Notes: generated by a model not told the origin, from the letters alone. Positions 13,959-17,210 are shown, numbered from the stretch's first letter. The stretch is 59,081 bases of DNA from Thermoanaerobaculia bacterium (GCA_036266195.1 DATANP010000599.1:1-59081), one strand, 5' to 3'. Numbers and translations are program-made.

Positions 13959-16900
13959 GTGCAGACGTTCGAAAGGAAGCCGCAGGCCGCGCCGGCGCGG
14001 CTCCAGACCAAGCTCACCGTCAACAAGCCGGGCGACGAGCACGAGCGCGAGGCCGACCGGGTCGCCGACGAGGTGGCCCGGGGCGGCAACGCCTCGGTCT
14101 CGCCGTCCGCTCCGCCCATTCCGCCAGCGACGCCGTCCGCGCAGAGAACCGCGCCGGACAGCGTCCATCAGACCCTGAACGCTCCGGGCCGGCCGCTGGC
14201 GGCGAACGTGCGCGACCGGTTCGAATCCCGCTTCGGCTTCGACTTCGGCAGCGTCCGCATCCACGCCGACAGCCCGTCGGCCCGCGACGTCTCGGCCCGC
14301 GCCTATACGGTGGGCTCGCACATCGCGTTCGCTCCGGGCGAGCTCGCGCCGGGTACCGCGTCGGGCGACCGCCTGCTCGCGCACGAGCTGACCCACGTCG
14401 TGCAGCAGGCCGGAGCGCCGGCCCGGCTCCAGCGCGACGACACCGGCAAGAAAAAAGAGGATGAGACCGAGGAGCCGAACCCGATCGCCGACTGGAAGCT
14501 CTCGGACGGCTCCATCGTCCTGATCCGGACCGACACCCAGGCGATCCTCATCCCCGGCGGCAAGCTGGTCTGGACGCCCGACGCCAAGGCGCAGGCGGCG
14601 TTCGAAGCCTCCAAGGGCCATCTCGCCACCGACCTCGGCACCCTTTTCGAGGTCCCGGCCACGGGCGCCTCCGGCACCCGCATCTTCAAGGCGGGCAAGC
14701 GCACGGCCCTCATCCTCGACGCCGGCTCCAACCCCATGCGGGCCGTGCCCGGCGCGGTCTACCTGAGCGAGTTCCAGGCGGTGCTGGCCAACCTGAGCAT
14801 CACCAAGCTGGAGCGGCTCCAGGTCATCCACGTCCACAAGGACCACGTGTCCGAGATCCCGCAACTCGTGGGGCAGTACAACATCCGGCCCCAGGACCTG
14901 ATCATCCCGGCGCCCTACGTGGGCGTGAACCGCGACATCCGCCAGGTGGTGACGGCCCTCCAGACCACCACCGACGCGGCGCTCACCAGCCTCGGCTACG
15001 GCACGGGCTGGAACCCGGGGACGAAGCTGAAGGACCAGGGCGGGGCCGGCGACGTGTTCCGCTACAGCTACAAGGTCGGCGACCTGGTGGTCGAGAACGT
15101 GGCGCTGCGCTCGGCCCTGAGCACCACCGCGCGCAACCCCGACCTGGCCTCCTACCTGACCAAGGTCACCCGCACCACCGACCAGGCCAAGGTGGTCGTC
15201 CTCGGCGACCTGCGCGGGGCCGACCTGGACGCGATCCGCACCGCCATGGAAAACGCGAAGTCCGGCTCCTGGGCCGAGTTCTTCAGCGGCGTGACGACCC
15301 TGAGCGGCTTCTCCCACCACGTGGGCGCCGCCAAGGACGCCGACGTCGCCGGCCTGCTCGGCCTGCTCGACGTCACACTGCTGCGCAACGGCAAGCTGCG
15401 AGTGGTGGAGCAGACCAACACCGCGGAGCACTCGCAGGCGCGGGCCGACACCATCGAAGTGGTGCGCCGGCTGGGCATCGAGCTGGTCACCACCGAGATG
15501 CCCGGGGCGGCCCCGTCGGCGGCCGGAGCGAGCAAGTCGGCCGTCTCGTCGCGCGGGCCGTCGGGCACCACCTACACCACGATCAACTCGGACCTGACCA
15601 CGGCCCTCGGCCGCATCCAGCGCCTGATCGCCGCGCGGCAGACGATCGAGACCTGGCGCCCGTGGTTCGAGGAGGCCGGCGGCAAGAAGGCCGTGGAGGA
15701 CATCCTGCCGCAGATCGACCAGTCGATCCAGTCCCTGCAGCAAGGGGCGCGGACCGCGGCCGAGGCCGCCCTGCGGGTGCGCACCGGCGGCAATCAGCTC
15801 ACCGGGGGAGGCCGCGACTACAGCACGGCCACAGGCGGCACGCGGGCGACGACCCTCGACACGGCGCTCCGGGGCATCCCGGGAACGACCACGGCCGAGA
15901 CCTCTCTCGGCACCAAGGGCTTCGATTTCCTGGAGGAGCTGCGGCGCCGGCCCGAAAAGGACATCCCGCTGGCCGTGGCCCTGAACGCGGCCATGACCCG
16001 CGGCGAGTACAGCGAAAAAGCCTTCCGCTACATGCTGGCCTCGCTCGACCCGGCGACGCGCGACTCGCTGCTCCTCGATCCCCGCGGCGGGCCGGCGGCC
16101 AAGGTCAAGACCTTCGAGCGCGTGCGGGCGACCTTCGGATTCCGCTCCAGCGTGCTCGGCACCGGCGAGATCCTGGCGGTGCCCAGCCACTTCTCGCCGG
16201 GCGCGAAGGCGGCGACGCGCGGCGTCGGCGGCTTCCTGGCCTTCCTGGAGATCTTCAACTCCCTGATCGTGCCCGGCGTGCAGGCGTACCAGACCGGCCA
16301 GCGCATCTATACCAGCAAGAACCTGCTCCCCTTCCTGCGCCGCCTGCTCTTCTGGCAGCAGGCCGGCGTGGCGCCGAAGGCCGTGGGCGTCGACGAGGGC
16401 ATCACGGATCAGACCTATGAAAAAGATTACGCGAAGGTCGTCAAGGGGCTGAACGATCAATCCCTCGACGCGCTCTACTTCGAAGAGCCGGTGCTCTCCG
16501 ACGTGGACGTCTTCAAGTTCGGAGCGTGGCTGGCGTACAACGTCCGCAACTTCGACGAGTTCGCGGTCCTCTTCAAGGACTCGGCCCAGGACGCCATCAC
16601 CTGGGAGTCGCCGGAGAAGGGCGACTGGCGCAAAGCCGTCTGGAAGGTGCGCGTGGGCCGCTACGAGACCTCGGGCGAGAACCACGTCGAAGAATCCTGG
16701 TACGAGCACCCGAAGCTGACCGAGCTGATGCAGGCGGTCGTCTCGAGGATCATCACGAACACCGATGAGCTCGTCAAGGCGGGCAGCTATTCGGATGAGA
16801 CGAAGAACCGCATCGGATACCTGACCGGTTACGAGAGTGGCCGCCATGGCACGCGGGCGAAGCTCGCCACGCCGGCCGAATCCACCGAGGTCGAGGTCGA

Positions 16901-17210
16901 GACCTTCGGCAACGAGCGCCATTCGCGGCTCAAGCGGACGGTCAAGTGGTGGTCGCCGCCGCAGTTCTACGTCGAGGAGGTCAGCGGAGACGAAGCGCGG
17001 GTCAAGGGTGCGGACTACAACACCTACGCCAACCTGCGCGGCCTGGAGACGGAGTACCGGGAGCTGGGCCTGGGCCAGTATGGCAGCACCCACAGCGTAA
17101 GCGTGGCCGGCAACCTCGCCGGCAGCGTCTGGATCCACCTCTCGCTGCTCGAAGGCATCGGCGTGCCGCTGCGCAAGCCCGTGCCCAAGGGAGCGCTCAC
17201 GGCGCCGTGA
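13959..17210 (+). CDS. DUF4157 (eCIS core domain) HExxH protein with MBL-fold HxHxDH motif; candidate injected effector
   Basis: RDRFESRFGFDFGSVRIHADSPSARDVSARAYTVGSHIAFAPGE...LLAHELTHVVQQ is the DUF4157 signature (HELTH at 14382-14396). ALILDAGS...LQVIHVHKDHVSEIPQLV (HVHKDH at 14829-14846) matches the metallo-beta-lactamase-fold motif. The remaining ~750 aa are unrecognised. Confidence 0.85.
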   Translation: MQTFERKPQAAPARLQTKLTVNKPGDEHEREADRVADEVARGGNASVSPSAPPIPPATPSAQRTAPDSVHQTLNAPGRPLAANVRDRFESRFGFDFGSVRIHADSPSARDVSARAYTVGSHIAFAPGELAPGTASGDRLLAHELTHVVQQAGAPARLQRDDTGKKKEDETEEPNPIADWKLSDGSIVLIRTDTQAILIPGGKLVWTPDAKAQAAFEASKGHLATDLGTLFEVPATGASGTRIFKAGKRTALILDAGSNPMRAVPGAVYLSEFQAVLANLSITKLERLQVIHVHKDHVSEIPQLVGQYNIRPQDLIIPAPYVGVNRDIRQVVTALQTTTDAALTSLGYGTGWNPGTKLKDQGGAGDVFRYSYKVGDLVVENVALRSALSTTARNPDLASYLTKVTRTTDQAKVVVLGDLRGADLDAIRTAMENAKSGSWAEFFSGVTTLSGFSHHVGAAKDADVAGLLGLLDVTLLRNGKLRVVEQTNTAEHSQARADTIEVVRRLGIELVTTEMPGAAPSAAGASKSAVSSRGPSGTTYTTINSDLTTALGRIQRLIAARQTIETWRPWFEEAGGKKAVEDILPQIDQSIQSLQQGARTAAEAALRVRTGGNQLTGGGRDYSTATGGTRATTLDTALRGIPGTTTAETSLGTKGFDFLEELRRRPEKDIPLAVALNAAMTRGEYSEKAFRYMLASLDPATRDSLLLDPRGGPAAKVKTFERVRATFGFRSSVLGTGEILAVPSHFSPGAKAATRGVGGFLAFLEIFNSLIVPGVQAYQTGQRIYTSKNLLPFLRRLLFWQQAGVAPKAVGVDEGITDQTYEKDYAKVVKGLNDQSLDALYFEEPVLSDVDVFKFGAWLAYNVRNFDEFAVLFKDSAQDAITWESPEKGDWRKAVWKVRVGRYETSGENHVEESWYEHPKLTELMQAVVSRIITNTDELVKAGSYSDETKNRIGYLTGYESGRHGTRAKLATPAESTEVEVETFGNERHSRLKRTVKWWSPPQFYVEEVSGDEARVKGADYNTYANLRGLETEYRELGLGQYGSTHSVSVAGNLAGSVWIHLSLLEGIGVPLRKPVPKGALTAP

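Follow-up and report, generated by a model that had tools for sequence, protein, structure and literature searches.

A DUF4157 protein with a predicted divergent metallo-beta-lactamase domain is a candidate eCIS cargo in a Thermoanaerobaculia bacterium

Analysis of a 59,081-nucleotide stretch of Thermoanaerobaculia bacterium DNA (GCA_036266195.1 DATANP010000599.1:1-59081; the window) reveals a gene at 13959..17210 (+) whose 1083-aa product joins a DUF4157 domain to a divergent metallo-beta-lactamase (MBL) fold, a helical domain and a C-terminal domain. We lean towards the view that this protein is an eCIS cargo with a divergent MBL payload, preferably a phosphodiesterase acting on nucleic acid, i.e. 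a Mn/Zn-dependent nuclease toxin. The open reading frame begins with GTG and has a GC3 of 0.94 in a genome of 67% GC, as fits a real gene. [quoted passage not shown] The NTD and linker have a mean identity to homologues of 0.31-0.32, as against 0.45-0.53 for the CTD domains. Beyond residue 153 the protein has no match in Pfam, NCBIfam or PDB sequence searches, and neither a signal peptide nor, by Pfam, choline-binding repeats or lipid-binding domains were detected. There is not a single cysteine, and family members have between 0 and 4; this near-absence would suit the threading of an unfolded protein through a tube.

The gene closes a run of eCIS structural genes, all on the + strand, that spans 317..10797 and was identified through Pfam and NCBIfam matches. 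These include a Pvc16_N cap gene (317-1333), a tube gene (1594-2241), a hub-like gene (2535-3701) matching PHROGs baseplate hub or tail protein, a spike gene (3717-4538) and baseplate genes (4926-6083 and 6109-10797). They are followed by a tail-fibre gene at 10833..13949 (+) carrying DUF6519 (Pfam, E 8.4e-11), also termed eBAP5, the domain that anchors eCIS tail fibres to the baseplate (PMC12923769), and the first-pass annotation was therefore right to place the 1083-aa protein directly after the fibre gene. No AAA+ loader, sheath or tape-measure gene is present in the window, because the contig begins inside the locus, and the 1083-aa protein is the only DUF4157 protein in it. The same gene order is seen around the 76%-identical homologue P0002 and around P0032 (loci L001 and L011), and P0027 of Flavihumibacter comes after CIS_TMP, an AAA ATPase and two other DUF4157 genes, in a locus that also has a separate muramidase. 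The downstream genes differ between loci, and no conserved adjacent immunity gene was found across those compared: the small ORFs 3′ of P0002 and of P0032 are unrelated to each other, and a DinB_2 gene, which looks like a flanking backbone gene here, adjoins the candidate cargo gene in two Holophagales loci and lies 3.8 kb off in a third. Many eCIS toxins are reported to be without immunity genes (PMC8213781).

The N-terminal region (aa 1-64; 13959..14150 (+)) is a candidate loading sequence; it is mostly disordered (pLDDT below 50 at aa 1-17 and 52-61, with a single helix at 27-40 in the AF2 model) and poorly conserved, with a mean identity to homologues of 0.31 versus 0.53 for the MBL domain. 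The DUF4157 domain (aa 65-153; 14151..14417 (+)) is recognized by PF13699 (eCIS_core, formerly DUF4157) at aa 79-153 with an E-value of 2e-27 and 95.6 bits against a cut-off of 22, the match spanning profile positions 1-78 of 79. The HELTH sequence (HExxH, aa 142-146) translates from 14382-14396, just where it was first reported, and H142, E143 and H146 are kept in essentially all homologues with the domain. The suggested tie to eCIS effectors is likewise borne out, DUF4157 being established in the literature as a mark of toxins and cargo linked to eCIS (PMC8213781, PMC11297309, PMC8894135), for which roles in loading, maturation or chaperoning, in cis or in trans, have been proposed (PMC8213781, PMC11297309). 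An acidic disordered linker (aa 154-175, APARLQRDDTGKKKEDETEEPNPI; 14418..14483 (+); pI 4.7) leads to the conserved part of the protein, and pLDDT is below 50 across aa 153-173.

The segment at aa 176-540 (14484..15578 (+)) is, by its predicted structure and by sequence profile, a true and highly divergent MBL fold of the Pce/ComEC/RNase J branch. Residues 230-540 are modelled with pLDDT mostly above 90, and all 22 of the best Foldseek matches in the PDB are MBL proteins, with a probability of 0.99-1.00 for all with E up to 0.1. The lowest E-values are those of RNase J and CPSF73/Ysh1 (1e-4 to 5e-4, probability 1.00; 1e-4 for the best RNase J match), the best TM-score is that of the ComEC MBL domain 9ic4 (0.68), and Pce (1wra) aligns with a TM-score of 0.52 at about 13% identity. 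When a profile of the MBL domain (A7) was compared with PDB sequences, Pce/CbpE was the only significant match (E 1.6e-6 to 4.9e-5 over about 150 residues, covering HxHxDH, the insertion after motif 2 and an Asp/Asn-Ser segment), and the match to ComEC was not significant (E about 0.7). The 1083-aa protein itself has no Pfam match to Lactamase_B or Lactamase_B_2 even at E<=10; among its homologues, Lactamase_B matches 4 of the 41 close ones (E<=0.01) and 13 of the 39 distant ones (E<=0.001). In P0044 it scores 34.8 bits against a threshold of 22.7, in a match that includes the residue aligned to H291, and the JGI annotation of one family member reads beta-lactamase-superfamily hydrolase. The proposal that the HVHKDH sequence at 14829-14846 lies within an MBL fold is thus upheld by Foldseek, by the Pce profile match and by the homologues. 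There are no Pfam matches to Beta-Casp or RMMBL in the protein; solely the MBL core aligns to the beta-CASP nucleases, so the target-normalised TM-scores to these are low (0.22-0.30). No OB or other recognisable nucleic-acid-binding domain was found by Pfam or Foldseek. The lower-ranked Foldseek and profile matches include PqsE, B3 lactamases, paraoxonase and glyoxalase II.

The predicted metal site was followed through 41 close homologues and 39-40 more divergent ones, down to about 20% identity. There are several informative features. First, motif 2 (H291-V-H293-K-D295-H296; 14829..14846 (+)), with ALILDAG just upstream in the translation, has H291, D295 and H296 invariant in 41/41 close homologues and H293 in 40 of them (Asp in the other), and all four are invariant across the divergent set; this conservation argues that HVHKDH did not arise by chance. 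Second, there is little or no variation at D254 (the motif 1 Asp), D417 and H453/H454, which come after beta-strands in the AF2 model. D417, the predicted motif-4 bridging Asp (VVLGDLRG; 15207..15209 (+)), is invariant throughout and is followed by R419, which is invariant in the divergent set and His in one of the 41 close homologues; H453-H454 (SGFSHHVGA; 15315..15320 (+)), also invariant, represent the motif-5 His. Third, the canonical motif-3 His is absent, there being no invariant His between aa 296 and 417 in the homologue alignments, and its place is taken by the invariant D395 (N-P-D-L-A-S-Y-L; 15141..15143 (+)), in a D-x-A-S segment that the profile aligns with the 'WDDNSNSL' segment of Pce. 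MBLs of the Pce/ComEC type likewise depart from His at this position. Of the downstream ligands to be expected of an MBL domain, those of motifs 4 and 5 are therefore present in the sequence and that of motif 3 is not in its usual form. Finally, the catalytic residues match in order those of ComEC (H598, D600, D602, H603, D700 and H725), mutants of which have reduced or abolished Mn-dependent DNase activity, with D417 corresponding to D700 by order and spacing and H453-H454 analogous to H725 (PMC12455585). From these alignments, a predicted binuclear-metal site comprising H291, H293, D295, H296, D395, D417 and H453/H454 appears complete and essentially invariant. The invariance of the metal-ligand positions, motif 3 apart, over about 80 sequences speaks for selection acting on an active site.

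The remaining half of the protein (aa 541-1083), modelled confidently, divides into a basic stretch of helices and an acidic alpha/beta portion. The claim that the last ~750 aa carry no motif holds for aa 541-1083, which have no recognised match, and fails on length: the MBL domain reaches to about residue 540, leaving a stretch of some 540 aa. The all-helical domain (aa 541-805; 15579..16373 (+); helices in the AF2 models) has a pI of 10.1, close to the family median of 10.45 among 92 members, for which the MBL domain median is 9.5. It contains a conserved hydrophobic helix, GVGGFLAFLEIFNSLIVPGVQ (aa 755-775; 16221..16283 (+)), the only hydrophobic helix in the protein and a moderate one (1.72 in a 19-residue Kyte-Doolittle window), lying within a stretch of pLDDT below 50 (aa 733-776); its hydrophobicity and embedded Glu are kept in homologues, with window values of 0.9-2.2. 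The acidic alpha/beta and beta-rich C-terminal domain (aa 806-1083; 16374..17207 (+); pLDDT mostly above 90, pI 5.2) always accompanies the MBL and helical domains in the two closer family tiers. Neither aa 541-805 nor aa 806-1083 has a Foldseek match in the PDB or BFVD, and the 540-residue module, as modelled, is a candidate new fold.

The unit formed by the MBL, helical and C-terminal domains is rare, with 193 clusters among 1.84 billion representatives, and occurs in bacteria and on at least one archaeal contig. It usually stands behind DUF4157 (66 proteins), often at the 3′ end of eCIS loci, and is also found behind LysM (P0037) or subtilase (P0128, P0137); such swapping between N-terminal modules is typical of a toxin cassette. 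Peptidoglycan-binding modules occur in several members (OmpA in P0035, P0038, P0124 and P0258; LysM in P0037), one member has a weak, sub-threshold Tlde1 match, and several homologues do not adjoin eCIS genes. The DUF4157-MBL pairing is the norm within this family, and yet it had seemed unfamiliar, with good reason: a literature search found no paper with both terms, and Lactamase_B is depleted in eCIS operons (odds ratio 0.44, Geller et al. table), as is explained by the family's MBL being too divergent for Pfam.

The closest parallel in architecture is with AlgoCIS Cgo1 and Cgo2, which similarly have a disordered NTD, DUF4157 and a large ordered CTD, and whose genes likewise come last in an eCIS cluster. 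Both were shown to lie in the tube lumen (PMC8894135; bioRxiv 10.64898/2026.05.27.728243), and Cgo2, at 1228 aa, is of comparable size (PMC8894135). However, the CTD of Cgo1 is a predicted metalloprotease rather than an MBL, and searches for homologues of the C-terminal unit, one of them seeded with P0027 of the Bacteroidota, returned no Algoriphagus protein, such that Cgo2 is not a close member of this family. The DUF4157-fused eCIS-associated toxins (EATs; for example EAT14, with DUF4157, LysM and transglutaminase, and DUF4157-DNase fusions) likewise have an N-terminal DUF4157 ahead of a toxin domain that varies, and a location at the 3′ end of eCIS operons (PMC8213781, PMC11297309), but here the payload is an MBL fold with a novel 540-aa module, neither listed among eCIS-enriched domains. 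Locus position, architecture and synteny in relatives thus fit a cargo role, and the first-pass proposal of an eCIS cargo stands as far as computation reaches.

Pce/CbpE of Streptococcus pneumoniae (1wra, 2bib), the closest solved relative by sequence profile, is a binuclear MBL phosphodiesterase that also has no beta-CASP domain; it acts on the cell's own wall, its choline-binding repeats and signal peptide have no counterpart here, and only in the 1083-aa protein does the MBL domain precede the unrelated 540-aa module. ComEC (9ic4) shares the catalytic order of H-x-H/D-x-D-H, a 'GD' bridging Asp and then His-His, residues that in ComEC give a Mn2+-dependent endo- and 5′-3′ exonuclease (PMC12455585). 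Its competence channel and OB fold (DUF4131) have no Pfam match in the 1083-aa protein, and it works in DNA uptake, in contrast to what would be a delivered effector. RNase J and CPSF73/Ysh1 share the MBL catalytic core, but their beta-CASP insertion and RMMBL were not detected.

By analogy with Cgo1 and Cgo2, in which the disordered NTD is required for loading (bioRxiv 10.64898/2026.05.27.728243), the N-terminal ~64 aa may serve as a system-specific loading sequence guiding the unfolded protein into the tube lumen. DUF4157, with its HExxH intact, would be an accessory module, perhaps for processing or refolding, its AlgoCIS counterpart being dispensable for loading. Contraction would then release the protein into or onto a target cell, the payload being the conserved unit of aa 176-1083 and its putative catalytic part aa 176-540. 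This part is most likely a binuclear-metal phosphodiesterase that hydrolyses phosphodiester bonds, and is probably a nuclease, with the basic helical domain supplying polyanion binding; its highest-ranked Foldseek matches are without exception phosphodiesterases or nucleases of the MBL fold. A nucleic acid substrate is suggested by the basic MBL and helical domains across 92 members and by RNase J and CPSF73/Ysh1 having the lowest Foldseek E-values; moreover, nucleases are the largest annotated class of predicted eCIS toxins, and a DUF4157-DNase fusion is known (PMC11297309).

Several observations count against this interpretation. Some homologues lie away from eCIS genes, the window contains neither an AAA+ loader nor sheath or tape-measure genes, motif 3 lacks its His, and no conserved immunity gene was found; against a nuclease in particular, the sole significant PDB sequence match, Pce, is a teichoic-acid phosphorylcholine esterase, Pfam and Foldseek revealed no beta-CASP, OB or other nucleic-acid-binding domain, and the OmpA and LysM modules of some members would better suit an envelope target. 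It is conceivable, though somewhat unlikely, that delivery is the same and the MBL domain works as a phosphodiesterase of the Pce kind on the envelope of the target cell, with teichoic-acid or LPS phospho-headgroups, phospholipids or lipid-linked pyrophosphate precursors as possible substrates, and with the hydrophobic helix and basic helical domain binding membrane or polyanionic wall polymers. The Pce match, which takes in the insertion that separates motif 2 from the D395 segment, the OmpA and LysM fusions together with the Tlde1 match, and the conserved hydrophobic helix are all consistent with this. However, Pce is also the nearest structural neighbour of the ComEC nuclease domain (PMC12455585), so likeness to Pce does not exclude a nuclease, and LysM is also present in eCIS toxins that act in the cytoplasm, such as EAT14 (PMC11297309). 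The hydrophobic helix, moreover, is transmembrane-like only in some clades, and the choline-binding repeats and lipid-binding domains sought with Pfam are missing.

We consider it quite improbable that the protein is not injected and instead has a function for the producer cell or for the particle, such as in release or lysis, in nucleic acid clearance during assembly or in maturation, with DUF4157 merely marking membership of the eCIS regulon. The roles proposed for DUF4157 in loading, maturation and chaperoning (PMC8213781, PMC11297309), the release of eCIS by producer lysis and the lack of an immunity gene at the loci compared would agree with such a function, and the peptidoglycan-binding fusions could equally indicate the producer's own envelope. 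Nonetheless, the architecture is that of experimentally proven lumen cargos, the Flavihumibacter locus already has its separate muramidase, and a unit that swaps N-terminal trafficking modules and has orphan copies off eCIS loci resembles an effector rather than an assembly factor. It is highly unlikely that the MBL domain serves as a scaffold devoid of catalysis or performs other chemistry (lactonase, glyoxalase, sulfatase or beta-lactamase): the absent motif-3 His, the divergence beyond the reach of Pfam models and the presence of PqsE, B3 lactamases, paraoxonase and glyoxalase II among lower-ranked matches point in that direction, but every metal-ligand position other than that of motif 3 stays constant in some 80 sequences, down to about 20% identity, and the nearest neighbours in structure and in sequence are without exception phosphodiesterases.

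DUF4157 occurs in about half of the predicted eCIS toxins, and 983 of 1130 such DUF4157 toxins are without a second annotated domain (PMC11297309). An MBL payload family leaves unchanged the established pattern of a variable toxin placed behind DUF4157, and would make the MBL fold a new entry among eCIS payloads, with at least one 'dark' DUF4157 payload family predicted to be an MBL-fold enzyme that Pfam misses and whose metal site is fully conserved; H291, H293, D295, H296, D395, D417 and H454 are offered for mutation. A rather unlikely extension is that aa 176-1083 constitute a new three-domain toxin cassette, mobile between eCIS/DUF4157, LysM-led and subtilase-led routes, in which the C-terminal half targets or translocates. 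If so, the helical domain and hydrophobic helix would bind or insert into the target membrane, the acidic domain would be a receptor or regulatory module, and a Pce-like metallo-phosphodiesterase would be brought to an envelope or cytoplasmic substrate, in a colicin-like division of labour. The 540-residue module may be a targeting or translocation part useful for engineered injection systems.

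The ORF at 13959..17210 on the forward strand, with a GTG start codon, encodes a protein of 1083 aa and is a real gene: it has full-length homologues, and its GC3 is 0.94 in a window of 67% GC. An antisense ORF of 2146 aa (10803..17243) was considered and rejected as a high-GC artefact, as the domain matches, the homologues and the high GC3 all lie in the forward frame. The sole Pfam domain of the protein is PF13699 (aa 79–153, E 2e-27), now named eCIS_core and earlier DUF4157, so that the protein is a member of this family and the only one in the window. The first-pass annotation had reported HELTH in a DUF4157 pattern at 14382–14396 and HVHKDH at 14829–14846, and translation reproduces both positions.

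The genes preceding it are, on their domain matches, those of a contractile injection system. All are on the forward strand, and they comprise a Pvc16_N cap (317–1333), a CIS_tube protein (1594–2241), a baseplate-hub-like protein (2535–3701, matched in PHROGs), a Phage_base_V spike (3717–4538), a TIGR02243-like baseplate protein (4926–6083), a protein of 1562 aa that weakly matches Tail_P2_I (6109–10797) and a DUF6519 fibre protein (10833–13949), identified, except for the hub-like protein, through Pfam/NCBIfam. DUF6519 corresponds to eBAP5, the domain that anchors eCIS tail fibres to the baseplate (PMC12923769), and the target gene thus begins 10 bases past a fibre gene, in the position that the first-pass annotation had given it. 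The eCIS locus is truncated in the window, which shows no gene for a sheath, a tape measure or an AAA+ protein. The sole recorded contig with the cap gene (JGI Ga0400322_001174, 3337 bp) has the same first base as the window, which may therefore begin at a contig end within the locus; this would account for the missing genes.

Two further features of these genes were observed. The single ORF at 6109–10797 corresponds to two overlapping genes of 1024 aa and 578 aa (2051–5125 and 5122–6858, the second weakly matching Tail_P2_I) in a syntenic Holophagales locus; two baseplate genes may have been fused here, or the two genomes may differ in reading frame. The fibre protein contains at about aa 430–560 near-identical tandem segments, GYSTTCTSGLFDSTHDTVKKALDRLCSI and GYTTTCTSGLFDNTHNTVEKALNRLCAI, recognized by eye, which precede its long C-terminal region.

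Past residue 153 the target protein has no NCBIfam, PHROGs or PDB sequence match in single-protein searches, aa 161–1083 match nothing in Pfam at E<=10, and a whole-protein profile yields only sub-threshold metallo-beta-lactamase (MBL) matches in the PDB, such that a domain-only profile was needed. Four independent lines of evidence make it close to certain that aa 176–540 form an MBL fold. First, an AlphaFold2 model built from 41 homologues has a mean pLDDT of 83.9, with the MBL region mostly above 90, and the 22 PDB structures that Foldseek ranks highest for it are MBL proteins without exception. Second, a profile of this domain alone matches the Streptococcus pneumoniae phosphorylcholine esterase Pce/CbpE among PDB sequences (E 1.6e-6, 1.1e-5 and 4.9e-5, over ~150 residues); the further 60 matches listed, most of them not significant, belong with few exceptions to the MBL superfamily. 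Third, Pfam Lactamase_B is found at E<=0.001 in 13 of 39 divergent family members; in the homologue P0044 its score is 34.8 bits (cut-off 22.7; aa 931–997), and the residue aligned to H291 of the target, residue 979, lies inside this match. One family member is annotated by JGI as a beta-lactamase-superfamily hydrolase. Fourth, no variation is seen across 41 sequences at D254, H291, D295, H296, D395, D417, H453 and H454, and 40 of the 41 also have H293; in a divergent set of 39–40 members, reaching down to ~20% identity, H291, H293, D295, H296, D395 and D417 are invariant, as are R419, H453, H454 and Q485. The HVHKDH segment, assigned in the first-pass annotation to an MBL fold on the understanding that placement outside such a fold would overturn the call, is thus set within one by Foldseek, the domain profile, the Lactamase_B homologues and conservation alike.

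The arrangement of the conserved residues can be compared with that of ComEC, in which Mn2+-dependent nuclease activity is lowered or lost when H598, D600, D602, H603, D700 or H725 is mutated (PMC12455585). The target protein matches these in order, with H-x-H-x-D-H followed by 'GD' and then 'HH'. The canonical motif-3 His is missing, and its place is taken by an invariant Asp (N-P-D-L-A-S) that aligns to 'DDNSNS' of Pce. The protein is therefore a structural member of the MBL superfamily in which one canonical motif is replaced. The accessory domains that define the beta-CASP, ComEC and Pce families are absent, placing it outside all three in the strict sense.

Residues 1–64 show little conservation (mean identity 0.31) and are for the most part disordered, and aa 154–175 form a disordered acidic linker. 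Behind the MBL domain are an all-helical, strongly basic domain (aa 541–805, pI 10.1; family median 10.45) and an acidic alpha/beta and beta-rich domain (aa 806–1083, pI 5.2), and these are almost as well conserved as the MBL domain (mean identity 0.49 and 0.45 versus 0.53). Modelled separately, aa 541–1083 reach a pLDDT of 85.7, and Foldseek finds no significant match for them in the PDB (best E 0.18, probability <=0.25) or in BFVD (best E 0.07). The sole low-confidence stretch of this region contains a conserved hydrophobic helix at aa 755–775, GVGGFLAFLEIFNSLIVPGVQ, with a Kyte-Doolittle value of 1.72. There is not a single cysteine among the 1083 residues; 19 of 41 family members are likewise cysteine-free and the others have 1–4.

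A search of 1.84 billion cluster representatives with a profile of aa 176–1083, without DUF4157, recovered only 193 proteins at E<=0.001, and thus the family is rare and its MBL domain too divergent to draw in ordinary MBLs. A census of 256 collected proteins with local HMMs revealed three architectures: DUF4157 followed by the MBL, helical and C-terminal domains (66 proteins), the same without DUF4157 (26 proteins, many of which have a truncated N-terminus), and the MBL part alone within proteins of 1500–2000 aa. Other N-termini include LysM (P0037) and subtilase (P0128 and P0137), and several members have an added C-terminal OmpA domain. Scanning of genome contigs found only three close loci, all in Holophagales MAGs, because the scan relies on sequence patterns. 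With these as its nearest genomes, the window probably comes from Acidobacteriota.

The genomic contexts of the homologues vary. At the locus of P0002 (76% identical) the synteny with the window is complete, P0032 lies between a DUF6519 fibre gene and another DUF4157 gene, and P0027 (Flavihumibacter) follows CIS_TMP, AAA ATPase, muramidase and two DUF4157 genes. Two homologues, P0024 and P0013, are orphans with a further DUF4157 gene nearby. P0013 is a full-length homologue (48% identical) on a 40985 bp contig (ENA ERZ25072999) that is archaeal by its marker genes (Ribosomal_L21e, RNA_pol_Rpb4 and DUF655), with an Exo_endo_phos gene also near it, and suggests effector transfer between domains of life. 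The LysM-led P0037, which has no DUF4157, is not at an eCIS locus but in a cell-death or defence neighbourhood (JGI Ga0376087_0000003, region 10001–18194): the genes of a bacterial gasdermin and of a TPR-CHAT protease (1220 aa) are adjacent to it, and Fic is encoded close by. In Corallococcus, a copy without the N-terminus adjoins a transposase.

DUF4157 is a published marker of eCIS that in most cases precedes a variable toxin domain (PMC8213781, PMC11297309). In AlgoCIS of Algoriphagus, the DUF4157 proteins Cgo1 and Cgo2 (1228 aa) occupy the lumen of the tube and are no longer present after contraction (PMC8894135), and their loading requires a disordered NTD, with DUF4157 dispensable (preprint, bioRxiv 10.64898/2026.05.27.728243). 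The target protein, as read from its gene, shares their three-part layout and genomic position, and we therefore interpret it as likely eCIS cargo that would be loaded and injected by analogy. Loading would be directed by the disordered NTD, with DUF4157 as an accessory module and aa 176–1083 as the payload. No Algoriphagus protein is among the payload homologues, and Cgo2 is thus not a close relative.

Within the MBL superfamily, the catalytic domain falls in the branch of phosphodiesterases that includes Pce, ComEC and RNase J, and we infer from this that it would hydrolyse a phosphodiester with a binuclear metal centre. Nucleic acid is the preferred candidate substrate, because the MBL and helical domains are basic family-wide, the best Foldseek E-values go to nucleases, and nucleases are common among eCIS toxins. 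That the payload acts instead on an envelope phosphodiester is nearly as good an explanation, consistent with the OmpA and LysM fusions in the family, the hydrophobic helix and the sequence match to Pce. The ComEC nuclease domain is itself closest to Pce, however (PMC12455585), so this last match favours neither substrate. The composite proposal of an eCIS-delivered MBL phosphodiesterase effector, preferably a nuclease, seems to us somewhat better than an even prospect. The first-pass observation of DUF4157 together with MBL motifs is confirmed, and domains, fold, conservation and synteny support its interpretation.

Lactamase_B is depleted in eCIS operons (odds ratio 0.44; Geller et al., enrichment table), and a literature search returned no paper with both 'DUF4157' and 'metallo-beta-lactamase'. 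The delivery logic is already known and the finding keeps within the established paradigm; the payload, a cryptic MBL enzyme with a 540-residue module without a structural relative, appears not to have been described before. One family among the 'DUF4157-only' dark effectors thereby gains an assignment that can be tested, and a new fold is possible.

As candidates for an immunity gene, small ORFs behind P0002 and P0032 were compared and are unrelated to each other. A DinB_2 (YfiT-like) gene directly follows the effector gene in the window (17227–17757, forward strand) and in a second locus (L008, 12785–13318), the two being 81% identical; in the P0002 locus it lies 3.8 kb downstream (17191–17733, 71% identical), and the orphan P0024 has two DinB_2 genes 4 kb away (5563–6612 in its locus). 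Its occurrence downstream in Holophagales at variable distance, beside housekeeping genes, led us to reject it provisionally as the immunity gene, and we read it as a flanking backbone gene. A convergent gene for a Schlafen AlbA_2 and HATPase_c_4 protein (17754–19034, reverse strand) overlaps its end by 4 bases.

Several other large proteins are encoded on the forward strand of the window. Two paralogues of ~1700 aa each, a few kb apart (23901–28940 and 30725–35950), carry their Ig-like domains (Big_13, Glucodextran_B, Big_1, CarboxypepD_reg and PKD) in an identical order. A giant ORF of 6913 aa (36809–57550) has ~20 bacterial TSP3 repeats, domains of the CarboxypepD_reg, Big_7, SpaA-like and VWA families and, at its C-terminus, a PAP2 phosphatase domain; it resembles a very large surface adhesin, for which a PAP2 end is unusual.
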